Part shown: in pieces, positions 29,191-63,946 of the stretch
Layout of the letters: every line of letters starts with the position of its first letter
Position numbering within the stretch: position 1 is the stretch's first letter
Notes under the pieces: model-generated
Database searches by the model: none
What the model was told of the DNA's origin: nothing
What the model saw: the letters and a program-made list of their open reading frames with translations, nothing else
Assembly (NCBI GenBank): GCA_046726015.1
Contig: JBKOZS010000085.1
Span: forward strand, 9,953-73,952
Length of the DNA stretch: 64,000 bases
Source: Acidobacteriota bacterium
Lineage (GTDB): Bacteria > Acidobacteriota > Vicinamibacteria > Vicinamibacterales > 2-12-FULL-66-21
Reading direction: 5' to 3'
Translations under genes and position numbers: made by a program

Positions 29191-30591
29191 CTATGCTGGC
29201 TGCGGTTCGACGATCCGGCGCCCTCTCGGATACTCGATTGCGAGCGTCTTGATCTTGTAGTTCATCACGCGCGGGCTGATCGCCAGCAGCTCCGCGGCGT
29301 CCTTCTGCACCCAGTTCGACATCTTCAGCGCCTCGATGAGCGCCTGCCGCTCGATCTCTTCGAGCGGAATGCCGGTGGGCGGGATTTTCACGACCGGGCT
29401 GCCATCGCTCGACGGTGCGCTGGTCGACAGTTCACCGAGGCGCAGGTCCGTGTTCGTCAGCTGCGGACCTTCCGTCAGGAGGATCGCGCGCTCGATCGCA
29501 TTCTCGAGCTCACGGATGTTGCCCGGCCAGTTGTAGCGCATCAACAGCTTGAGCGCGTCGGGCGACAAGCCGTCGACCTTCTTCTTCAATTCGCCGGCGA
29601 ACCGGCGCAGGAAGAATCCTGCGAGCTGCGGGATGTCGTCCTTGCGCTCGCGCAGAGGCGGCATGTCGATCGACACGACGTTCAGCCGGTAGTAGAGGTC
29701 CTCGCGGAACTGGCCGCTCGCCACCATTTGCGGCAGGTTGCGGTTCGTTGCCGTGATGACGCGGACGTCGACACGCAGCGTGCGCGTGCCGCCGAGGCGC
29801 TCGAACTCGTGCTCCTGGAGCACGCGCAGGATTTTTGCCTGCGTGTTCGCGCTCATGTCGCCGACTTCGTCGAGGAACAGCGTGCCGCCGTCCGCCTGTT
29901 CGAAGCGCCCGACGCGCTGCTTGTCCGCGCCGGTGAACGCCCCCTTCTCGTGACCGAACAGTTCGGACTCGAGCAGGTTCTCCTGCAGCGCCGCGCAATT
30001 GACCTTGACGAAATTACGTCCCGCGCGCAGCGAGTTGTGATGGATCGCGCCGGCGATGAGCTCCTTACCCGTTCCCGTTTCGCCGCGGATGAGGACCGTC
30101 GTGTTGCTCTTGGCGACCTTCTTCACGATCGCGAGCACCGACTGCAGCGCGCCGCTCGCGCCGACGATGCGGTCGAAGTCGTAGATGTCCTGCTGCGTGT
30201 GACGGAGGTACTCGATCTCGTGCTTGAGACGGCGGTGCTCGATGGCCTTCTCGACCTTGAGCTCCATCTCCTCGATCTCGAACGGCTTCTGCACGTAGTC
30301 GAACGCGCCGATCTTCATCGCTTCGACTGCCGTGTGCACCGATCCGAACGCCGTCATGAGGATCACGGCGGTGGTCGGGTGAAGCGACTTGGCCGTGCGC
30401 AACACGTCGAGCCCGTCACTGCCGCCCATCTTGAGATCGCTCAGCACGACATCGTACTGGCCTTCGTGAAGCCGCTCGATTGCGACGTTGCCGTTCGGCG
30501 CCTCGTCAACTTCGTGATGCGCGTCTGACAACGCCCGAACGATCCCGCGTCTGAGCGAGTCGTGATCGTCGGCGACAAGAATCCGTCCCAT
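29191..30591 (-). CDS. NtrC-family sigma-54-dependent response regulator (REC-AAA+-Fis HTH)
   Basis: 'ILVADDHDSL...DVVLSDLKMGG', 'GETGTGKE', 'ESELFGHEKGAFTGA', 'LFLDEV', 'WPGNIRELEN'. Confidence 0.9.
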   Translation of the reverse strand: MGRILVADDHDSLRRGIVRALSDAHHEVDEAPNGNVAIERLHEGQYDVVLSDLKMGGSDGLDVLRTAKSLHPTTAVILMTAFGSVHTAVEAMKIGAFDYVQKPFEIEEMELKVEKAIEHRRLKHEIEYLRHTQQDIYDFDRIVGASGALQSVLAIVKKVAKSNTTVLIRGETGTGKELIAGAIHHNSLRAGRNFVKVNCAALQENLLESELFGHEKGAFTGADKQRVGRFEQADGGTLFLDEVGDMSANTQAKILRVLQEHEFERLGGTRTLRVDVRVITATNRNLPQMVASGQFREDLYYRLNVVSIDMPPLRERKDDIPQLAGFFLRRFAGELKKKVDGLSPDALKLLMRYNWPGNIRELENAIERAILLTEGPQLTNTDLRLGELSTSAPSSDGSPVVKIPPTGIPLEEIERQALIEALKMSNWVQKDAAELLAISPRVMNYKIKTLAIEYPRGRRIVEPQPA

Positions 30592-30603
30592 AGACTCCTC
30601 TCC

Positions 30604-31803
30604 CTATCCAAACAGCTCGTGCTGGGTCTTGACGGGCAACGTGACGCGGAAGAGCGTGCCGCCTCCGGGGCGCGTGCCAACATCGATGCGGCCGTCATGC
30701 GCATCGACGATCTTGCGGACGATCGCCAGCCCCAGCCCCGAACCCTGCGGCTTGGTGGTGAAGAAGGGGCTGAAGATGCGATCCATGACCTCCGGCGGCA
30801 CGCCGGGGCCGTCATCCGTGACCGCGATCTGCACCATTGGGCCGGCGTTGTCCACGCCGGGCGCGGGCTCTTCGCCCGCGAGCGCCGCCGCGACGATCTC
30901 CACCTGTCCGCCGCCCGTCATCGCTTCAAAGGCGTTGGTGACGAGGTTGGTGAAGATCTGCCGCAACTGGTGCGGATCGCCCTGGATTGGCGGCAGGTTC
31001 TCGGGCACCGATACCCGGACCTGGACTCTTCCTTTGGGTGCGTGGGTTTCCGCCATCGAAACGGCATCGCGCACGACATCGGAGACCGCGATGTTCTCGA
31101 CTTGCAGGCGGATGGGACGCACGAACTCGAGGACCTCGAGCACGATGGCGTTTGCCATCTTGGCTTCTTTGATGATGTCGCCGAGAATCGTCTGCGCGTC
31201 GGGCGAGTCGAGCAGCTGACGCTTGAGGATCCCCGCCATCACTTCGATCCCCGCGAGCGGGTTCTTCACTTCGTGGGCGATCGCCGCGGCCATTTCCCCG
31301 AGCGCCGCGAGCCGATCGCGCAACCGCTCGCGCTCTTCAAGTTGCTCGACGCGGGTCAGATCCTTGAAGAATAACGTGGCGCCGGCCACGCGGCCGCGCT
31401 TGTCGCGCACGTGCGACAGCGTGTAACCGATGACCTTCCCGGTTCGCTTCAGCCGCAGCTCGGCGCGGTTGGGAAGGTGGGAGATATCGAAAGCCCCTCC
31501 GACAATGCGGCAGACGTCCGGCACTTCCTTCAACACTTCCGAGAACGGACGGCCGATGTCGGACTGCCTGGGCTTGAGGCCGAGCACGCGGTATGCGATC
31601 TCATTCATGACGGCAACGCGGCCGTCGCGCGTGATCGCGACCACGCCGTTCCGAAGGTTCCAGACGAGGTCGCGGTAAAAGCCCTCCGGCACAACCGCCG
31701 CGTCAGCCAGCTTGCGTCCAGGTGGCTTGCGCGCGGGCGTTTTACGGCGCGCCCCGCGCGGGGCCGACGGTTTCCGCCGGACGCGAGTCGTTTTGCTCGG
31801 CAT
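30604..31803 (-). CDS. sensor histidine kinase (PAS-HisKA-HATPase_c), apparently cytoplasmic
   Basis: H-box 'AAIAHEVKNPLAGI', 'NLVTNAFEA', 'DDGPGV', 'GSGLGLAIVRKIV'. Start chosen at ATG 31803 (GAGG 8 nt upstream). Alternative starts at 31842 and 31884. Confidence 0.8.
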   Translation of the reverse strand: MPSKTTRVRRKPSAPRGARRKTPARKPPGRKLADAAVVPEGFYRDLVWNLRNGVVAITRDGRVAVMNEIAYRVLGLKPRQSDIGRPFSEVLKEVPDVCRIVGGAFDISHLPNRAELRLKRTGKVIGYTLSHVRDKRGRVAGATLFFKDLTRVEQLEERERLRDRLAALGEMAAAIAHEVKNPLAGIEVMAGILKRQLLDSPDAQTILGDIIKEAKMANAIVLEVLEFVRPIRLQVENIAVSDVVRDAVSMAETHAPKGRVQVRVSVPENLPPIQGDPHQLRQIFTNLVTNAFEAMTGGGQVEIVAAALAGEEPAPGVDNAGPMVQIAVTDDGPGVPPEVMDRIFSPFFTTKPQGSGLGLAIVRKIVDAHDGRIDVGTRPGGGTLFRVTLPVKTQHELFG

Positions 31804-31843
31804 CAAGGGAGCCTCGAACCCCGGGAGGAGCTCGGGCGACATA

Positions 31844-31872
31844 ATTGTAAGTGCCCCGGCCTGTCGAGCCAA
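31844..31872 (-). promoter_or_regulatory. sigma-70-like promoter candidate (TTGGCT-N17-TACAAT, minus strand)
   Basis: The reverse complements of agccaa (31867-31872) and attgta (31844-31849) sit upstream of the kinase start. Confidence 0.4.
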
Positions 31873-32103
31873 GCTCTTTTGCATGTTACAGATAAGATGT
31901 CGAGCCCCGGGAAAAGCGCCGCTGCCGCCGTAATCGGAACGGAGACACGCACAGTTCGGGATGCTCGAGCTAGGCTCGCAGGGGCAAACGGTATGCCCTG
32001 CAGGATCCAGGGCGGATCTGCGAAATCCTGCGGAAAACAGGTGAGGTGGGAGGCTCTCGAATGGTTGAGCCTGTAACAATTTTGAGCGCCGATTACACTT
32101 CTG

Positions 32104-32391
32104 TTACACTTCTGTCTCTGACTGAAGCGTTTCCCACTGATGCATCAGGTCTCCGACTTCCCACATCAGAGTCTGATGCCGGTCGATGACCGGTTTGGCG
32201 GCGTCGTGGTTCTCGTAGAACCCCGGGGCCGACATCGTCGACTCGAGGTCCTTGATGGCCTGCTCACGCTCGGCAATACGGCTTTCGAGGTCCTGGATCC
32301 GCCGCTGGCGGGATTCCGCCTGCTTGCGCAGGCGCCGCTGCTCCGAATCTGTCCGCTTTTTCTCCTCGTAGGAGACGGGCTGGGGTCTTGA
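32104..32391 (-). pseudogene. in-frame continuation of the ABC-F gene past a TAA: encodes the ABC-F C-terminal coiled-coil domain (95 codons, no start codon of its own)
   Basis: Manual translation immediately after the TAA (32392-32394): SRPQPVSYEEKKRTDSEQRRLRKQAESRQRRIQDLESRIAEREQAIKDLESTMSAPGFYENHDAAKPVIDRHQTLMWEVGDLMHQWETLQSETEV*. Confidence 0.75.
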
Positions 32392-34071
32392 TTATGCCGG
32401 GAGTTCCTTTTCGTTCTGTGGCGCCGTTCGCGGTGCTGGAGCCGGCGGTGCGGTCTGCACAGCCTCGCGGTTCTTCTTGCTCCAGAGAAACTCTTCGTAG
32501 TTCCCCGGATAGACGACGGCGTCGCCGTGGGCGATGTCGATGACCTTCGTCGCGAGCCTGTCGACGAAGTAGCGATCGTGCGAGACGAAGATCAGCGTGC
32601 CGCCGAAATCCTCGAGCGCTTCGAGAAGGACGTCCTTCGAATCCAGGTCGAGATGGTTCGTCGGCTCGTCGAGCAGCAGCGTGTTGGCCGGACGGAGCAG
32701 CATGCGCGCGACGGCGAGTCGCGTGCGTTCACCTCCGGAGAGCACCCGCACCGGCTTCTCGATGTCGTCACCGGAGAAGAGGAACCCACCGAGGATCGTC
32801 CGGATGTGGGGGACCATGTGGATCGGAGAGTCCCCCGCGAGCGTCTGGTACACCGTAAGCGTGGGATCCAGCCGCGCCGCTTCGTCCTGCGCAAAGTACT
32901 GCATCACCACCTGGTGACCCTCGGTCCGCATGCCCGTGTCCGGCGCTTCGACCCCCGACAACATCCGCATCAGCGTTGACTTGCCGACACCGTTGGGTCC
33001 AAGCAGCGCGATGCGATCGCCACGCTCGATGTGCAGGTTCACGTCGGCGAAGACACGCTGCGTGCCGTAGGTCTTCCGCACGTGCTTCAGATCGAGCACC
33101 GTTCGGCCGCTCTTCTGGCACTGCGGGAAATGAAAGTGCACGCGCTTTCGTTCGGGCGGGATCTCGATCGGGACGATCTTCTCGAGCATCTTGATCCGGC
33201 TCTGTACCTGCGCGGCTTTCGTCGCCTGGTAGCGGAACCGGTTGATGAACGCGCGCATGCGCTCGAGCTCTTCGTCCTGCTCGTGTTTCTGCTGCCGGAG
33301 ACGCTCCATCCGCGCGTCGCGTTCTTTGATGTAAGCGGAGTAGTTCCCGACGTAATCCGTCAGCGTTCGCAGGCCGATCTCGGTAATGCGCGTGACGACG
33401 GCGTCGAGAAAGAAGCGATCGTGCGAAACCAGGATGACCGCGTGGGGATATGACGTGAGGTATTCCTCGAGCCAGTTGCGCGCATCGAGATCGAGATGGT
33501 TCGTCGGCTCGTCGAGCAGCAGCAGCCCCGGTCGTCCGAGCAGCAGCCGCGCCAGCGCGATGCGCATCTGCCATCCGCCGGAGAACGTCTCGGTGCGCTT
33601 GTCGAGGTCTGCTTCGGAGAAGCCAAGCCCGCGCAGCACCGTCGTCACCTTCAGCTCGATGCTGTAACCCTCGCTGCGCCGGAATGTCTCCTGGAGCTCC
33701 GCGTAGCGCGTCAGCATTGCCTCATGATCCGCCTCGGATTCGTCGTCGTCGCCGAGGCGCTCTTCGAGTTGCGCGATCTCAGCGCGCAGGTCGAGCAGCG
33801 GCTTGAACGCGAGCGATGCTTCTTCGCGCAGCGTATGTCCGCTGTGGACGAGGCCATCCTGCGGCAGATATCCGATGGTGAGCCCTGCTGGCTTCACGAT
33901 CAGTCCGCCATCCGGCTCGTCCAGTCCCGCCAGCATCCGCAGGAGCGTCGTCTTGCCCGCCCCGTTTGGCCCGCTGAGGCCGACGCGTTCGCGGTCGTCG
34001 ATTTGCCACGTGACGCTGTCGAGCAGGACGCGGTCGCCGAATGATTTACTCAGGGTCGAAAGCTGGATCAA
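32392..34071 (-). CDS. ABC-F family ATPase (Uup/YheS-like translation-factor type), ending at a premature-looking TAA
   Basis: Two ABC modules: 'GPNGAGKTTLL'/'LSGGWQMR'/'LLLDEPTNHLD' and 'GPNGVGKSTLM'/'LSGGERTR'/'LLLDEPTNHLD'. No transmembrane domain. Confidence 0.9.
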   Translation of the reverse strand: MIQLSTLSKSFGDRVLLDSVTWQIDDRERVGLSGPNGAGKTTLLRMLAGLDEPDGGLIVKPAGLTIGYLPQDGLVHSGHTLREEASLAFKPLLDLRAEIAQLEERLGDDDESEADHEAMLTRYAELQETFRRSEGYSIELKVTTVLRGLGFSEADLDKRTETFSGGWQMRIALARLLLGRPGLLLLDEPTNHLDLDARNWLEEYLTSYPHAVILVSHDRFFLDAVVTRITEIGLRTLTDYVGNYSAYIKERDARMERLRQQKHEQDEELERMRAFINRFRYQATKAAQVQSRIKMLEKIVPIEIPPERKRVHFHFPQCQKSGRTVLDLKHVRKTYGTQRVFADVNLHIERGDRIALLGPNGVGKSTLMRMLSGVEAPDTGMRTEGHQVVMQYFAQDEAARLDPTLTVYQTLAGDSPIHMVPHIRTILGGFLFSGDDIEKPVRVLSGGERTRLAVARMLLRPANTLLLDEPTNHLDLDSKDVLLEALEDFGGTLIFVSHDRYFVDRLATKVIDIAHGDAVVYPGNYEEFLWSKKNREAVQTAPPAPAPRTAPQNEKELPA

Positions 34072-34259
34072 GGGAAGTGCTTACCGCAAACTGCACACTG
34101 TCAATCGGTTAGGGCTTCACGGCGGTATTATTTTAGCACACGGTACGGACCCTTCCCGGCCGCAGCCCGGCTGTCCATAACCGCAGGCGACGGCAGCTTT
34201 CGTATCCGGATGTCGCCAGTTGTCAGCTGCTGTCGTCTCGACCTGTGTCTCTCAAGGCA

Positions 34260-56894: not shown

Positions 56895-59800
56895 GTGCAC
56901 GAGCAGCAGATTCCACCGGAGCAGCCGAAGGCCGAGGCCACGGCGCCCCCCGCTGAGCCGCCACGCAAGCGGCGGAAGCATCCGGTCCTGCGCGCGCTCG
57001 GCATTCTGGTGGCGATCGTTGCCGCGCTGATCGTCGCGTTCTTCACCGTCGACATGGGGCCGTCGGTCCGCAAGCGCGCGGAAACTGCCGGCTCGAACTA
57101 TCTCAAGCGGCCGATGCACATCGGCAAATTGAGCGTCCGCCTGTCGACCGGCACGTTCATTGTCGAAGACCTGGTCATCGAAGGACTGAAGCCAACCGAT
57201 CGCCCGTTCCTCAAGGCGAAGCGCATCGCGGTGAACATGCCGTGGTGGACGATCTTCAACAAGGAGCTCGTGATCCAGGACCTGGATATGAGCGACTGGG
57301 AGATGCTGGTCGAGCAGTTCAGGAACGGTCACAACTTTCCCAAGATCGTCCCAGAGTCGAAGGGACCGAAAGGACCGAAGCGGTTCGTCACCACGGTGCG
57401 ATCGGTCATCGCGCGTAACGGTCAGTTCACCTACGAAGATCACACGACACCGTGGAGCACCGTCGCGCGCAACCTGAACGTGTCGGTCTGGAAGGGGCTC
57501 GATACGTACCGCGGCACCGCGCAATTCACGAACGGCTCGGTCGCGATCCAGTCATACCGGCCGTTTCGCGCGGACATGCAGACCGCCTTCAAGATCGATG
57601 GCGGAAAAGTGATCCTCGATCGAATCGATCTGAAGAGTGAAGGGGCAACGAGCGCCGTCACGGGCTTCGTCGACCTGGCGCGCTGGCCCGAGATGGTCTA
57701 CAACGTGCGATCGCACGTCGATTTTCCCATCCAGAAAGAGATCTTCTTCAAGGAGATGAACTTCGGTGTCACCGGCCAGGCCGACTTCACCGGCGTCTTT
57801 CGTTTCTTCAAGGGAGGGCGTGAGCTGAAGGGACACTTCACGACACCGGAAGCTGGCGTCAATGTTGGAGGAAACGCGTGGCGGTTCCAGGACGTTGCCG
57901 GCTCGCTGCTCTGGATTCCGAGCACGTTCGAGGTGACCGACGTTACGACGTCGCTTTACGGTGGACGCGCGAAGTTCCTGTACTCGATGGCGCCGCTCGG
58001 CGCCGGCCCGGCGAAACCCACGCAGGTTGTGTGGGACGCGCTCTACAGGGATGTCGATCTCGCCACGCTCACCGACTTCCTCCAGACCCAGGGTTTGCGC
58101 CTCGCCGGCCGCGCCACAGGTCACAATCGTCTTGAATGGCCGCTCGGGAAATTCGCCCGGAAGCACGGTGAAGGAGAAATCGCGACGACGCCTCCGTCCG
58201 GCATCCGGCCGATGACGCGTGAGATTGCGGCGGATGTCATCGCCACGGTGGATCCGCTGCTGCCCGAACAAGGACCGTTCAACCCGCGGCTGTGGATTGG
58301 GTACGTGCCCATCGCAGGAAAGATCACTTACCGGCTCGATCCGGACTGGATCACGATCGGCGATGGCAGCTGGGCCGCGACCGAGAAGACGTACGTCGAG
58401 TTCTCGGGGCGAACCGCGTGGCTCCACAACTCGCGGATTCCATTCCATGTCACGAGCGCAGACTGGCAGGAGAGCGATCGCCTGCTCGCCGGGATCATGA
58501 CCGCGTTTGGATCGTCGACCGGTGCGATCCCGATTGGCGGGCGCGGCCAGTTCGATGGCGTCATGCTCGAGTCGTTTTCGAGGCCGCGTATCGAGGGACA
58601 CTTCGACGGCGAGCGGATGCGCGCGTGGGATGTGCTGTGGGGGCGTGGCATTGCCGATCTCGTGATCGAGAACAGCTACGTGACGATCTCCAAGGGACTG
58701 ATCCAGCACGAGAGATCTGAAATCGCGGCGGAGGGAAAGTTCTCGCTTGGCTATCCGCGCAAGGATCTCGGCGAAGAGCTGAACGCGATCGTCCGGATGA
58801 GCAAGCGGCCGCTGGCCGATCTCCGGCACGCGTTCGAACTGGACGACTATCCCGTCGAGGGGCTCGCTTCGGGGGAATACCACATCTGGGGCAAGTACGA
58901 GAGGCCTGACGGTTTCGGCCGTCTGCAGATCGACAACGGTGTCGCGTACGGCGAGCCGTTCGATGTTGCGACCGCCAACCTCCGGTTTGAGGGCAACGGC
59001 GTAAGACTCGACGCGATGGACATCAAGAAATCGACCGGCAGAGTGACCGGCGCTGCCTGGGTCGGCTGGGAAGGCAATTACTCGTTCGATGCAACCGGAA
59101 GCAAGATTCCGGTCGAATCGCTCGCGTCCATGTCGTTTCCACGTGCTCCGCTGTCAGGGATCCTTCAGTTCACCGCGACCGGTGCGGGCACATTCGAGTC
59201 GCCCCGGTACGACGTGAAGCTGGCCATCGCGGATCTGTTCGCCGGCGACGAAGGGATCGGCCAGGTGAGCGGCCGGCTCTCGATGCGCGGCGAGATGCTG
59301 ACGATCGAGATGGAAGCGGCATCCCCGCGCCTGTCGGTCTCCGGCTCGGGTCGCATCGCGTTGACACCGGAGATGGACGCGGAGATCACGATGCGCGTGT
59401 CGGACACGTCGCTCGATCCGTACATCCGTTTCTTCCAGCCGACGCTCTCTCCCTTTACGACGGCGGTTGCCGACGGCACGATTCGGATTGTCGGCGAGCT
59501 CGCGGATATCGATCACCTCCTCGTCGAGGCGAATGTCGAGCAGTTGCGGCTGAAGCTGTTCGACTACCCGGCGCACAACGAAGGGCCGATCAAGATCGCC
59601 CTCAACCAGCACCGCATCGATGTCCAGCGTTTCCGGCTGGCTGGCGAAGGCACGGCCCTCGAACTGTCAGGGGAGATCGGCCTGCACGACAACAAAATCG
59701 CGTTGAATGCTTCCGGAGATGCCAACCTTGGCATCCTCCAGGGCTTCTACCGGGAGATTCGCACTGCGGGCACCGCCTCACTCAACGCCGAAATCCGCGG

Positions 59801-61049
59801 CGATCTGGATGCGCCCGTGTTCTCCGGCAGCGCCACGATCAAGGACGGGCGTTTCCGCTATTCCACGCTGCCGCACGGCCTGCAGGCGATCAACGGCCGG
59901 CTGCAATTCGACGCGCAGGGGATTCGCATCGTGGATGCAAGCGCCGAACTCGGCGGCGGAAAGGTTCAGTTCGGCGGCCGCGTCGGTATCAAAGGGTTTG
60001 CTCTGGGAGAACTGAACCTCACCGCCACCGGCGAGCGGATGAACCTGCGCTACCCGGAAGGGTTCCGCTCGATTCTCGATGCCTCGCTCGCACTGCGCGG
60101 CGACGTCTCGTCACCCGTGCTGAGCGGCAGGGTCGTGCTCATTGACGGCGTTTACACGAAGCGGTTCGAGCCGAATGTCGACATCTTCAACCTGGGCGGG
60201 GGTTCGGCGCTGCCGTCGCCGGTATCCGGCCCGACGATCCCCCTGCGCTTCGACATCCAGATCTCGGCGCCTTCCACGATGCGGGTTGAAAACAATCTGG
60301 CGCGCCTCGTCGCGCGCGCCGATTTGACGCTGAGCGGCACCTATGATCGGCCACAGCTGTTCGGCCGAGCCGAAATCGAGCGCGGCGACATTCTCTTCGA
60401 AGGCAATCGCTACGTGGTGACGCGCGGCACGATTGATTTCCTGAATCCCGCGCGCATCGAGCCGTTCTTCGACATCGAGGCGGAGACACGCGTCCGGGCC
60501 GCGACCAGCACGGCTGGTGCGGGAACGAGTGAGACGTATCGCGTGACGTTTGCGGTCACCGGCACGCTTGGCGGCCGCATGAACATGCAGCTGAATTCCG
60601 ATCCGCCGCTGGCGCCGGTTGACATCATTGCGCTGATCTTCGGCCAGTCACCCAACATCGCCAACGCGGAGCTGAACGCGCTGCGGCCAACGGCCGTCAC
60701 GCAATCGGAAGAGGCGCTGCTGCGCCAGGCGTTCGTTCGTTTGGCGGCCGGGCCGATCGCGGCGCCAGTCAGCCGCGTCCTCGAACAGACGTTTGGCGTC
60801 AGCACCGTGCAGATCGCGCCGAGCCTCGGCACCGAGAACGATCCACTGACGCCGACCGCGCGCCTGATCATCGGCAAACGGATCTCGAGCCGCGCCTACC
60901 TCACCTTCTCGCGCGCGCTGGGCACGACCCAGCGGGAACAGATCATCATTCTCGAATACGATCAGACGCAGAATTTCGGCTGGGTGCTCACGCAGAACGG
61001 CGATCGCACGTTCTCCGTCGACTTCAGGGTCCGCCGCCAAATCTTCTGA
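56895..61049 (+). CDS. tamB: translocation and assembly module protein TamB (DUF490 family)
   Basis: 1384 aa. N-terminal TM anchor, long beta-rich body, DUF490-like C-terminus. Directly precedes an Omp85 gene with a 1-nt overlap. Confidence 0.8.
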   Translation: MHEQQIPPEQPKAEATAPPAEPPRKRRKHPVLRALGILVAIVAALIVAFFTVDMGPSVRKRAETAGSNYLKRPMHIGKLSVRLSTGTFIVEDLVIEGLKPTDRPFLKAKRIAVNMPWWTIFNKELVIQDLDMSDWEMLVEQFRNGHNFPKIVPESKGPKGPKRFVTTVRSVIARNGQFTYEDHTTPWSTVARNLNVSVWKGLDTYRGTAQFTNGSVAIQSYRPFRADMQTAFKIDGGKVILDRIDLKSEGATSAVTGFVDLARWPEMVYNVRSHVDFPIQKEIFFKEMNFGVTGQADFTGVFRFFKGGRELKGHFTTPEAGVNVGGNAWRFQDVAGSLLWIPSTFEVTDVTTSLYGGRAKFLYSMAPLGAGPAKPTQVVWDALYRDVDLATLTDFLQTQGLRLAGRATGHNRLEWPLGKFARKHGEGEIATTPPSGIRPMTREIAADVIATVDPLLPEQGPFNPRLWIGYVPIAGKITYRLDPDWITIGDGSWAATEKTYVEFSGRTAWLHNSRIPFHVTSADWQESDRLLAGIMTAFGSSTGAIPIGGRGQFDGVMLESFSRPRIEGHFDGERMRAWDVLWGRGIADLVIENSYVTISKGLIQHERSEIAAEGKFSLGYPRKDLGEELNAIVRMSKRPLADLRHAFELDDYPVEGLASGEYHIWGKYERPDGFGRLQIDNGVAYGEPFDVATANLRFEGNGVRLDAMDIKKSTGRVTGAAWVGWEGNYSFDATGSKIPVESLASMSFPRAPLSGILQFTATGAGTFESPRYDVKLAIADLFAGDEGIGQVSGRLSMRGEMLTIEMEAASPRLSVSGSGRIALTPEMDAEITMRVSDTSLDPYIRFFQPTLSPFTTAVADGTIRIVGELADIDHLLVEANVEQLRLKLFDYPAHNEGPIKIALNQHRIDVQRFRLAGEGTALELSGEIGLHDNKIALNASGDANLGILQGFYREIRTAGTASLNAEIRGDLDAPVFSGSATIKDGRFRYSTLPHGLQAINGRLQFDAQGIRIVDASAELGGGKVQFGGRVGIKGFALGELNLTATGERMNLRYPEGFRSILDASLALRGDVSSPVLSGRVVLIDGVYTKRFEPNVDIFNLGGGSALPSPVSGPTIPLRFDIQISAPSTMRVENNLARLVARADLTLSGTYDRPQLFGRAEIERGDILFEGNRYVVTRGTIDFLNPARIEPFFDIEAETRVRAATSTAGAGTSETYRVTFAVTGTLGGRMNMQLNSDPPLAPVDIIALIFGQSPNIANAELNALRPTAVTQSEEALLRQAFVRLAAGPIAAPVSRVLEQTFGVSTVQIAPSLGTENDPLTPTARLIIGKRISSRAYLTFSRALGTTQREQIIILEYDQTQNFGWVLTQNGDRTFSVDFRVRRQIF

Positions 61050-63946
61050 TGCGTGTCGCCGCGCTCGTCCTGTTGTCCTTGATCGCGGGCCTTCCGCCGG
61101 TCGCGTATGCACGCGACCAGCGCACGTCTGACGCGCAGGTTCCCGCGTCCGCGTACGTCGGACGTCCCGTCAACATCGTCGGGATCCTGATCGAGGGATC
61201 ACCCGCGCTCGAGCCGCGCCTGTTCTCGCTCGTCTCGACACGCCAGGGACAGCCGCTGTCGATGGTCGACGTGCGCGAGACCATCACGCACTTCTACAGT
61301 CTCGGCAGGTTCGAGGACATCCAGGTCGAAGCGGAAAACGGCCCGAACGGGACCGTGAACGTGCGCTATCTGCTCGATCCGATCCACGCGGTGAGCGCCG
61401 TCAAGTTCCGCGGCCAGCTCGCCCTGCCAGAGTCGATGCTGCGCGATCGCATGACGGAGCGTTTCGGCCCCACGCCGCCACTCGGCCGCGCCGCCGAAGT
61501 CGCGGCGGCGCTCGAGGATCTCTACCGCGACCACGGATACCTCCAGGCGGACGTGCGAGTCGGCGCGCCGATCGTGGAGCACGATCCCGACCGCACCACG
61601 CTCGTGTTCGAGGTCGACCCCGAACCTCGTGCTCGTATTTCACAGGTCAAGATCGTCGGCGATCCAAAGGAGCCAGAGGCCGAGTTCATTCAGCGGCTCG
61701 GCGTGCAGCCAGGGCAGCCCTATCAGCCCGCGGAAATACGAGCCAGGCTCGCCGAGTCCGTCCAGCGTCTGCGTCGTCGCGGCTTGTACCAGGCGACGGC
61801 GACGGTTGACTCAGCAACGATTAGTCCCGATCGACTGTACGCGGACGTGGTGATCGCGGTTCGTCCCGGACTGCTGGTGACCGTGCGCTTCGAGGGAGAC
61901 CCGATCCCGAAGGAAAAGCTGTCGGAGTTCGTGCCGATCGAGCGTGAGGGGTCGGTTGACGAGGATTTGCTCGAGGATGCCAAGAACCGGATCACCGCGT
62001 ACCTCGCGGAGCAGGGGTACTGGCGCGCGAATGTCACACATACGGAGCAGGACGGACCGGGTACTCTGACGATCGTCTTTCGCGTCGCGCGCGGCCTCAG
62101 GTATCACGTCGGTCCTGGCGGCGTCGAGGTCAGTGGCAACGCATCAATCAACACCGAGGAGTTCAGGCCAGCTCTTCGGACCCTCGCGCCTGGCGATCCG
62201 TTCGTCGCAGCCAGGCTCGACGCGATCGTCGGGGCCATCACTGAGATCTATCGGAAGCGGGGGCTCGCCACGATGACAGCGGCCTCTGATGTGCAGGAAA
62301 TGCAGCCCGGCGTGGTCCGTCCCGTCATCGTGATTACGGAAGGGCCGCGGGTGACGATCGGAACAATCTCCTTCGAGGAGAACTCGGGGATCAAGGCGGA
62401 GCAGCTGCAGGCGCGGGTGAAGACGAAAACCGGCGATCCGTACTATGGTCCCACCATCGCCGCCGATCGTGAGGCCATCCTCGTCGAGTACTTGAATCAA
62501 GGGTACTCGACCGCGAATGTCACGGTGACGCCGCAACTCTCGCCGGACGGCACCATTGCCGACCTCCGGTTCAAGATCGTCGAAGGCCCGCAAACGATCG
62601 TCGACCACATCATCGTCGTCGGCAACACACGCACGCAGGAATCGGTGATTCGCCGCGAACTGCAGCTCGAAGAAGGGAAGCCGCTCGGCCTCGAGGATCT
62701 TCTCGAGAGCCAGCGGCGCCTGAGCGCCCTGGGCTTGTTCCGCCGCGTGCGCATCACGCCGATCGCGCATGGCAATTCCGGCGACCACGACGTGCTTGTC
62801 ACGGTGGAAGAGGCACTGCGGACGACGATTGGCTATGGCGGCGGCGCCGAAGTCAATCGATTGCTCGAAGCCGATCCGGTCACCGGTGAAGCGCGCGAGA
62901 ACCTCGAGTTCGCGCCGCGCGGATTCTTCGAAATCGGACGGCGGAACATCGGCGGCCGTAACCGGTCGGCCAACCTCTATACGCGCTTGAGTCTCAGGCC
63001 GAACCGCGATCCTGAGAATCCGAAGACGTTCGGCTTTGCCGAGTACCGTGTTGTTGGCACCTATCGCCAGCCACGCCCATTCCGGGGCGCCGGCGAGTTC
63101 ACCGCCACCGCTGCGGTCGAACAAGGCGTGCGTTCCAGCTTCAACTTCAGCCGCAAGGGCGCCAACGCGGAAGTTACGCGGCGTCTCTCGAACATCCTTC
63201 GCGGCAGCGCGCGGTATGCCTTTACCACGACGCGCATCTTCGACGTGCAGCTTGATGCGAACGATCCGCTGACACCGATCATCGATCGCCTGTTTCCGCA
63301 GGTGCGGTTGTCGGCGTTTTCGGTGGCCGTCGCCCGCGACACGCGCGACGACGTGCTCGAGCCGCAACGCGGGATGCTGCTTACGGCCGATGGCACAATC
63401 GCGGCACGTGTCATCGGGTCGGAGGTCGGTTTTGCGAAGACCTTCTTGCAAGGCTTCGTGTACCGCAATCTCGGTCGCCCGAACCTCGTGTTTGCGGGCG
63501 GCGTCCGTCTCGGCCTCGTAAACCCGTTTGCACGCGAGACGGGGGACCGAGTCGTTCAACAAGTGCCGGCGAGCGAACGTTTCTTCGTCGGAGGCGACAC
63601 GACGATTCGAGGCTACGCGCTCGACAGCGTAGGTGCGCCAGGGACAATCAGCCCGAACGGCTTTCCGATTGGCGGTAACGCGGTCATCATTCTCAATGGT
63701 GAATTGCGCACGCCGATCTGGCACGAGGTCGCCGGCGCGGTGTTCATCGACGGAGGGAACGTGTTCCCGAGCGCAGCGGACTTCGACATTGGCCAGCTGC
63801 GCGGCGCCATCGGGTTCGGCATCCGGTACCGATCGCCGTTCGGTCCGATCCGCGTCGATCTCGGGTTCAAGCTGGATCGCCAGGTGATTGCCGGCCGGCT
63901 CGAGTCGCGAACCGGGCTGCATTTCAGTATCGGGCAAGCGTTCTAA
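61049..63946 (+). CDS. bamA: Omp85-family outer-membrane protein assembly factor (multi-POTRA, BamA-like)
   Basis: Repeated POTRA-like modules ('I..I.I.G...'). C-terminal barrel 'FFVGGDTTIRGY', 'RVDLGFKL', ending '...HFSIGQAF'. Confidence 0.85.
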   Translation: MRVAALVLLSLIAGLPPVAYARDQRTSDAQVPASAYVGRPVNIVGILIEGSPALEPRLFSLVSTRQGQPLSMVDVRETITHFYSLGRFEDIQVEAENGPNGTVNVRYLLDPIHAVSAVKFRGQLALPESMLRDRMTERFGPTPPLGRAAEVAAALEDLYRDHGYLQADVRVGAPIVEHDPDRTTLVFEVDPEPRARISQVKIVGDPKEPEAEFIQRLGVQPGQPYQPAEIRARLAESVQRLRRRGLYQATATVDSATISPDRLYADVVIAVRPGLLVTVRFEGDPIPKEKLSEFVPIEREGSVDEDLLEDAKNRITAYLAEQGYWRANVTHTEQDGPGTLTIVFRVARGLRYHVGPGGVEVSGNASINTEEFRPALRTLAPGDPFVAARLDAIVGAITEIYRKRGLATMTAASDVQEMQPGVVRPVIVITEGPRVTIGTISFEENSGIKAEQLQARVKTKTGDPYYGPTIAADREAILVEYLNQGYSTANVTVTPQLSPDGTIADLRFKIVEGPQTIVDHIIVVGNTRTQESVIRRELQLEEGKPLGLEDLLESQRRLSALGLFRRVRITPIAHGNSGDHDVLVTVEEALRTTIGYGGGAEVNRLLEADPVTGEARENLEFAPRGFFEIGRRNIGGRNRSANLYTRLSLRPNRDPENPKTFGFAEYRVVGTYRQPRPFRGAGEFTATAAVEQGVRSSFNFSRKGANAEVTRRLSNILRGSARYAFTTTRIFDVQLDANDPLTPIIDRLFPQVRLSAFSVAVARDTRDDVLEPQRGMLLTADGTIAARVIGSEVGFAKTFLQGFVYRNLGRPNLVFAGGVRLGLVNPFARETGDRVVQQVPASERFFVGGDTTIRGYALDSVGAPGTISPNGFPIGGNAVIILNGELRTPIWHEVAGAVFIDGGNVFPSAADFDIGQLRGAIGFGIRYRSPFGPIRVDLGFKLDRQVIAGRLESRTGLHFSIGQAF

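Follow-up and report, generated by a model that had tools for sequence, protein, structure and literature searches.

The locus described here carries an ABC-F gene on the minus strand, whose reading frame is interrupted by a TAA in front of an intact C-terminal domain (CTD). Throughout the text, the window refers to the whole 64-kb stretch of DNA that was analysed. The features of the locus are listed below; the two genes that follow the ABC-F gene lie outside the feature itself and are given as context only.

32395..34071, minus strand: ABC-F core ORF, with a TTG start (34071), 559 codons and the C-terminus ...APQNEKELPA
32392..32394, minus strand: premature in-frame TAA, followed by T (32391), so that the termination signal is UAA-U
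32107..32391, minus strand: cut-off segment of 95 in-frame codons, made up of the linker end (SRPQP) and the ABC-F CTD
32104..32106, minus strand: second TAA (TAA-C), the stop at which the full-length gene ended ancestrally and with which the ends of the orthologues align
32104..32235, minus strand: mechanical 43-aa ORF (MSAPGFY...), opened by the only in-frame ATG inside the CTD
30604..31884, minus strand: sensor histidine kinase (HisKA and HATPase_c), the downstream neighbour
29191..30603: sigma-54 response regulator (Response_reg, Sigma54_activat, HTH_8) after the kinase

An earlier note made from the sequence alone had placed the end of the ORF at the TAA 32392-32394, after ...NEKELPA, and these coordinates were confirmed on the minus strand. 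Its hand translation of the next 95 codons likewise proved exact, up to the second TAA at 32106..32104. Counting the stop, the full reading amounts to 559 + 1 + 95 = 655 codons. The 95-codon segment reads SRPQPVSYEEKKRTDSEQ...LQSETEV (whole translation, SRPQPVSYEEKKRTDSEQRRLRKQAESRQRRIQDLESRIAEREQAIKDLESTMSAPGFYENHDAAKPVIDRHQTLMWEVGDLMHQWETLQSETEV), and the cut-off CTD peptide, taken from the same segment, is SRPQPVSYEEKK...ETEV. The order of ABC-F gene and kinase was also observed on a related contig (L081).

The ABC-F gene and its family

The 559-aa core comprises, in order, NBD1, the PtIM linker (ABC_tran_Xtn), NBD2 and the start of a Pro/Ala-rich C-terminal linker. Two copies of PF00005 (169 bits) mark the NBDs in Pfam, PF12848 (104 bits, residues 232-313) marks the PtIM between them, and the core passes the NCBIfam ABC-F family model NF000355 with 469 bits against a cut-off of 380. 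The N-terminus MIQLS.L.KSFG is common to the gene and its orthologues. ABC-F proteins bind the ribosomal E site, from where the PtIM extends to the peptidyl-transferase centre. By homology to the ribosome complexes of YheS, YbiT and EttA in the PDB, the product of this gene would be expected to bind the E site and to hydrolyse ATP.

Among solved structures (PDB chains), YheS was the best match with 346 bits (residues 4-595), followed by YbiT (323 bits), EttA (297 bits) and then Uup. The closest characterised relative is consequently E. coli YheS, instead of Uup, to which the protein had earlier been likened, and YheS-like ABC-F with a CTD is the most fitting description of the protein. If the stop is ignored, E. 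coli YheS has the same layout of NBD1, PtIM, NBD2, linker and coiled-coil CTD, its C-terminal extension being about 110 aa long. The equivalog cut-off of NF007921 (PRK10636, NCBIfam), which we take to be the YheS model, was missed by a wide distance (380 bits vs 917), and the protein is therefore regarded as a distant Acidobacteriota relative, not a YheS equivalog. Scores for NF011646 (PRK15064; 395 bits) and for the EttA model NF008775 (411 bits) were also below their cut-offs, 762 and 599, respectively. Relatives of the gene carry the JGI label 'ABCF3'.

The cut-off C-terminal domain

Within the 95 residues beyond the stop, the Pfam domain ABC_tran_CTD (PF16326) is detected at 47.6 bits, above the gathering cut-off of 32 (E 2e-12), with a match that spans fragment residues 27-90 (about 32122..32313) and profile positions 5-68 of 69. 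The suggestion that the downstream codons represent the CTD of the same ABC-F protein is thereby borne out, and identity to the CTDs of the nearest orthologues reaches 87-88%. At the GC content of the window (64%), a random run of 95 codons was calculated to stay open ~8% of the time. The open frame alone is thus weak evidence, and it is the PF16326 content that settles the coding nature of the segment.

Estimates of dN/dS by the Nei-Gojobori method, made against the three nearest genomes, gave 0.04-0.10 for the CTD (89 codons) and 0.05-0.07 for the first 525 codons of the gene. In addition, the CTD contains two rare residues, a count at least equalled in 49 of 120 orthologues, so that there is no excess of private residues, and all of the 29 invariant CTD columns listed are kept. 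Since constraint on the CTD equals that on the rest of the gene and private residues are not in excess, the break appears to be recent. The undecayed CTD as such fits three readings, namely a very recent stop, a stop that is not real, or a domain that is still translated.

The fold of the cut-off CTD was predicted with AlphaFold from a 25-sequence alignment as a two-helix antiparallel hairpin, with helices at 8-53 and 62-94 (pLDDT 89.5). The top PDB fold match found by Foldseek was the CTD of Uup (2LW1; prob 0.99, TM 0.58/0.64, rmsd 2.3 Å, E 0.4), where the E of 0.4, taken alone, does not reach significance, as can be expected of a short coiled coil. The DNA-binding coiled coil of Uup shares the predicted two-helix hairpin, although its sequence identity to the cut-off 95 aa is only 18%. 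In cryo-EM maps, the C-terminal domains of YheS and Uup (~100 residues) are invisible (bioRxiv 10.1101/2023.06.15.543498; PMC13249984).

The segment had also been described as lacking a start codon and as absent from the list of ORFs. This description is correct as far as no ATG, GTG or TTG precedes the domain; it misses an inner ATG, which gives the 43-aa ORF 32104..32235. This ATG encodes the Met that is conserved in the CTD motif M-[SA]-A-P-G-F-Y, and the ORF that it opens covers only the turn and the second helix, without helix 1. No well-placed Shine-Dalgarno sequence was seen before it when the sequence was inspected by eye, and the 43-aa ORF is not considered a gene.

The stop among relatives and the nature of the event

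For the protein search, the two parts were joined into one query, a database of 5.8 billion protein clusters was searched, and the best 120 matches were examined. Full-length proteins of 641-709 aa, with 75-86% identity, 99-100% query cover and PF16326 present, make up 119 of these 120 clusters. The remaining one (P0008, 559 aa, 100% identical) is the source genome's own annotated product, a singleton that sits on a 75,325-bp NCBI contig. Judging by the names of the protein matches, the lineage belongs to the Vicinamibacterales (Acidobacteriota) of soil metagenomes. At the DNA level, one uninterrupted ORF runs through the linker and the CTD in 76 of the 80 nearest species-representative genomes. 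Two of the four exceptions are a match that meets a contig end (L046) and one that began upstream of the real start of an intact gene (L070); the other two (L047 and L052) are frameshifted, L052 several times, and contain no nonsense codons. Both of the latter are 'MFD' MAGs, in which the indels look technical. L052, a Microflora Danica (MFD) MAG, had looked like a second case of an in-frame stop at a similar position and was rejected, since its gene is frameshifted repeatedly.

A stop in the linker was accordingly found in none of the 119 full-length clusters and none of the 76 intact genomes, about 195 relatives in all. Its absence from every relative examined points to an ordinary young mutation or a base-call error, rather than to programmed read-through. 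The comparison with orthologues that the earlier note had called for gives a clear result: no relative ends at the stop, the linker consists of sense codons throughout, and the possibility that orthologues also end here is ruled out. Of the three options first raised, this leaves two, an error and a nonsense mutation of very recent date; the third, stop-codon read-through, is unsupported given ~195 relatives without the stop. Same-species DNA was also sought in metagenomes, with no match either to the exact 27-base flank with NNN at the stop or to a degenerate pattern for the lineage-specific peptide KRTDSEQRRLRKQAES. Furthermore, a protein search with the linker and CTD only returned no fragment above 90% identity.

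The linker that holds the stop leads from NBD2 to the CTD; it is of low complexity, rich in Pro, Ala and Lys, and differs in both length and sequence even between the nearest relatives. Of the 121 alignment rows, 89 have a gap in the column of the stop, and the remainder have A, K, R, D, T or other residues. In L050, which gave the best local DNA match, GCG stands opposite the TAA, a codon that is not one step away from it. Because the stop falls in a variable linker that cannot be aligned, the ancestral codon is not nameable. The flanks are clear in frame 0. Upstream, CAG AAC GAA AAG GAA CTC CCG GCA (QNEKELPA) resembles QSEKKAPA in L001; downstream, AGA CCC CAG CCC GTC TCC TAC opens RPQPVSYEEKK, which resembles KPQPVSYEEKK in L050. 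This homology in frame 0 on both flanks, up to the stop, indicates a substitution or a small in-frame change. A double frameshift, in which a short out-of-frame stretch would lie between homopolymer runs, was tried as an explanation and ruled out, since frame 0 homologues stand immediately on both sides.

Neither local repeats nor a similar second copy of the site, which might cause a misassembly, were found in the 64-kb window, and no other gene broken by an in-frame stop was seen there. Three same-frame adjacent pairs proved to be normal neighbours, namely an anti-sigma-like gene and its neighbour, HslV and HslU, and biotin carboxylase and BCCP. With no other interrupted gene in the window, the contig does not have the appearance of being error-ridden.

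Weighing the explanations

A very young nonsense allele to TAA, possibly a strain polymorphism, in an ordinary YheS-type ABC-F gene is given about an even chance of being the correct explanation. A recent change to TAA would have occurred in the variable, Pro/Ala-rich stretch that joins the second ATPase domain to the coiled-coil CTD. UAA-U would then end translation and release a 559-aa protein that has both ATPase domains and the PtIM and lacks the CTD, which is the YbiT/EttA architecture, and the 95 downstream codons would be an untranslated remnant of the CTD in which decay had not yet begun. The stop is present in the deposited sequence and in no relative examined, its flanks are homologous to those of other genomes and the CTD behind it is intact; that the base is real in the organism, and that translation truly ends at the TAA, is what we infer. 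A sequencing, consensus or assembly error, with a sense codon and a normal 655-aa protein in the organism, or a minority strain variant that was assembled, is a substantial possibility placed below an even chance. It would account for a stop that is unique among about 195 relatives and for a CTD that is perfectly intact, with normal dN/dS and no excess of rare residues; indeed, every observation is equally well explained by a consensus or base-call mistake. The source is a MAG contig, all relatives are MAGs and the query cluster has a single member; in L047 and L052, which are MAGs too, this gene is visibly damaged by indels that look technical, and an independent sighting of the TAA allele was not found in the metagenome and protein collections searched. 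Furthermore, constraint on the gene is strong in all relatives (dN/dS about 0.05), so that a truncating allele would be expected to be harmful and uncommon, and this lends some weight to an artefact. Against an error stand the clean, substitution-type event with both flanks in frame, the position of the site outside repeats and without a similar copy elsewhere in the window, and the lack of any further broken gene seen in the 64 kb. Consensus substitution errors that create a stop are rare in short-read assemblies. Altogether, the clean window favours the nonsense allele, and strong constraint together with zero decay favours the error.

Explanations in which the TAA does not simply end the protein are far less probable. 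Programmed read-through, in which the ribosome would mostly stop at the TAA and make a YbiT/EttA-like protein of 559 aa, but would sometimes decode it and make a YheS-like protein of 655 aa that includes the CTD, so that one gene gives two isoforms, is considered very improbable. Its downstream frame is open, homologous and undecayed, and both architectures occur in nature as separate paralogues, YbiT being the YheS-clade form without a CTD (PMC11162784); however, the stop occurs in 0 of 76 intact genomes and 0 of 119 clusters, whereas known programmed recoding sites are conserved, and the linker around the site is not conserved. Termination is signalled by UAA with +4U, a strong context, and UAA is the least leaky stop. 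The natural terminator of the gene is TAA in 60 of 79 orthologues and TAAT in 39 of 79, and the topoisomerase I encoded in the window, with its full set of domains, ends at TAA-T. Bacterial read-through is reduced by a +4U (PMC5289835). No significant RNA structure is formed by the 111 nt that begin at the stop, their MFE being -40.3 kcal/mol against a shuffle mean of -35.1 kcal/mol (z = -1.5), with 16 of 200 shuffles folding as well; the window contains no suppressor tRNA, its sole tRNA being Lys-CTT, and no other gene-like frame running on through a stop was found in the 64 kb. The arrangement is reminiscent of prfB (RF2), where an in-frame stop lies inside the gene of a translation factor and conserved coding sequence continues beyond it. 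The programmed frameshift site of prfB, the classical example of recoding in a gene for a ribosome-acting protein, is shared by most bacteria, and its stimulatory context is defined. Here, by contrast, the stop is found in one genome only, in the strongest terminator context, and the downstream sequence continues in the same frame. A real and partly decoded TAA that would serve lineage-specific tuning of a ribosome-acting ABC-F factor, through its 559-aa and 655-aa forms, is equally improbable. In a weaker variant of this idea, the truncation would be a strain-level selected allele that converts a YheS-type into a YbiT-type protein, replaying the origin of CTD-less ABC-Fs.

A split gene, in which the CTD would be translated alone, by re-initiation or from a non-canonical start, and act in trans with the ATPase core, is given hardly any credence. 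The protein collection does contain CTD-only gene calls (P0185, P0211, P0216, P0218 and others), but between the TAA and the conserved mid-domain Met there is no ATG, GTG or TTG, and the sole 43-aa ORF lacks helix 1. Separate translation is thus unlikely because the domain has no start codon. As candidates for natural CTD-only genes, several of the calls were followed up and rejected: P0185 and P0218 belong to partial genes that run open to the edge of their contigs and in which an internal start was miscalled; P0240 comes from a contig of 0.56x coverage full of frameshifts; and P0211 and P0216 come from contigs of 1.6-1.9x coverage on which different upstream genes are joined at the same point. 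The CTDs of the last two are 95.7% identical, yet the genes upstream of them differ, which makes both contigs probable chimeras. Least probable of all, and close to negligible, is an altered genetic code in which TAA is reassigned or generally suppressed. Nothing except the single in-frame TAA speaks for it; against it, HslV (Proteasome profile positions 3-188 of 189) ends at TAA-A and is followed by a separate HslU, topoisomerase I with all its domains ends at TAA, no other gene-like frame in the window passes a TAA, and orthologues end in TAA.

Meaning for the ABC-F family

The explanation given most weight, a very young nonsense allele, can be set against what is known of the YheS and YbiT lineages. 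YbiT is told apart from YheS by its missing C-terminal domain, and a CTD of at least 80 aa after NBD2, the criterion that separates the two (PMC11162784), is found in the DNA of this locus and in all orthologues, and not in the encoded product. In a reconstituted in vitro system, arrest release by YheS was abolished by deletion of its C-terminal extension (PMC11162784); the product encoded here thus differs from YheS in being without a domain that YheS needs for this activity. YbiT and EttA (530-555 aa, no CTD) have the same domain content and size as the 559-aa product, but they form stable lineages in which the gene has its natural end behind NBD2, whereas here an intact CTD sequence follows the stop. 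Furthermore, CTD extensions are easily gained and lost in evolution according to Murina et al. (PMC6723617). If the stop is real, the YbiT/EttA-sized core would probably still bind the ribosome, without CTD-dependent activity, and this paralogue would probably have lost or changed its function.

Confined to one MAG, with the gene intact in all relatives, the single premature stop is a routine event, either a pseudogene or a matter of assembly quality, and as a premature stop or nascent pseudogene the case is already known in kind. For annotation, the deposited 559-aa protein should carry an internal-stop truncation flag and should not be mistaken for an ABC-F that naturally lacks the CTD. A stop confirmed by reads would make the allele a natural CTD knock-out, affecting the YheS-like factor of an uncultured member of the Vicinamibacterales, and would provide a small data point on how CTD-less ABC-Fs such as YbiT can arise.

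Linker turnover and frameshifts in the ABC-F gene

The variable Pro/Ala-rich linker between NBD2 and the C-terminal coiled-coil domain (CTD) was compared between window positions 32392-32500 (minus strand) and loci L001-L006, drawn from the nearest species-representative genomes. From 'EEFLW' to 'SYEEKK', the linker spans ~35 aa in the window versus ~45-65 aa in the nearest relatives, and, relative to L001, six additional codons (TAA TCA AGA CCC CAG CCC) lie precisely at the premature stop. Together, the length difference and the extra codons show recent indel turnover around this stop. Two 'MFD' (Microflora Danica) Acidobacteriota MAGs carry frameshifted ABC-F orthologue loci:

L047, 3001-5026: frameshifted ABC-F orthologue
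L052, 3001-5013: frameshifted ABC-F orthologue

The former contains a single frame change, immediately upstream of the CTD, and the latter at least three, in the linker and CTD region. These changes look like indel errors within GC-rich, low-complexity sequence, which indicates that the ABC-F gene region is susceptible to technical damage in MAGs.

Origin of CTD-only gene calls

Four CTD-only protein entries were traced to their contigs:

P0185, L081 169-417: partial ABC-F gene, open to the contig edge
P0218, L085 128-400: partial ABC-F gene, open to the contig edge
P0211, L083 545-832: 95-aa CTD-only ORF, ENA contig
P0216, L084 268-555: 95-aa CTD-only ORF, ENA contig

For P0185 and P0218, gene callers had placed the start at an internal GTG or ATG of a partial gene that runs off the contig edge, and public collections thereby gained small 'CTD-only' proteins that are spurious. 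Among comparable short CTD proteins, some are labelled by JGI as, for example, 'uncharacterized coiled-coil protein SlyX' or 'DUF3084 family'.

P0211 and P0216, which share 95.7% DNA identity, could possibly represent a genuine stand-alone CTD gene. Their contigs have coverages of 1.9x (L083) and 1.6x (L084), and the genes upstream of the two ORFs differ, one being MoaA-like and the other metallo-beta-lactamase-fold-like (identified by eye), while joining the CTD ORF at an identical linker point. In addition, a 28-nt reverse-strand match (L084 248-275 vs L083 366-393) lies upstream of the junction. Both contigs are probably chimeric low-coverage assemblies.

Gene neighbourhood and terminator usage

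Four consecutive stop-to-stop segments share one reading frame on the minus strand:

29191-34080, minus: in order, ABC-F core, CTD remnant, histidine kinase, sigma-54 response regulator

The maximal histidine kinase ORF (TTG at 32079) begins just 24 nt past the CTD stop, and the true start probably lies downstream of this TTG. The order of ABC-F followed by a kinase was found again in L081. Elsewhere in the window, two very large ORFs are linked via an overlapping TGATG stop/start, an arrangement suggestive of translational coupling:

56895-61049, plus: 1384-aa ORF
61049-63946, plus: 965-aa ORF

TGA is the most frequent stop among gene-like ORFs of the window (64% GC). At the ABC-F gene ends of loci L001-L080, 60 of 79 relatives use TAA as the natural terminator and 39 have TAAT, a preference of this gene for a strong terminator.
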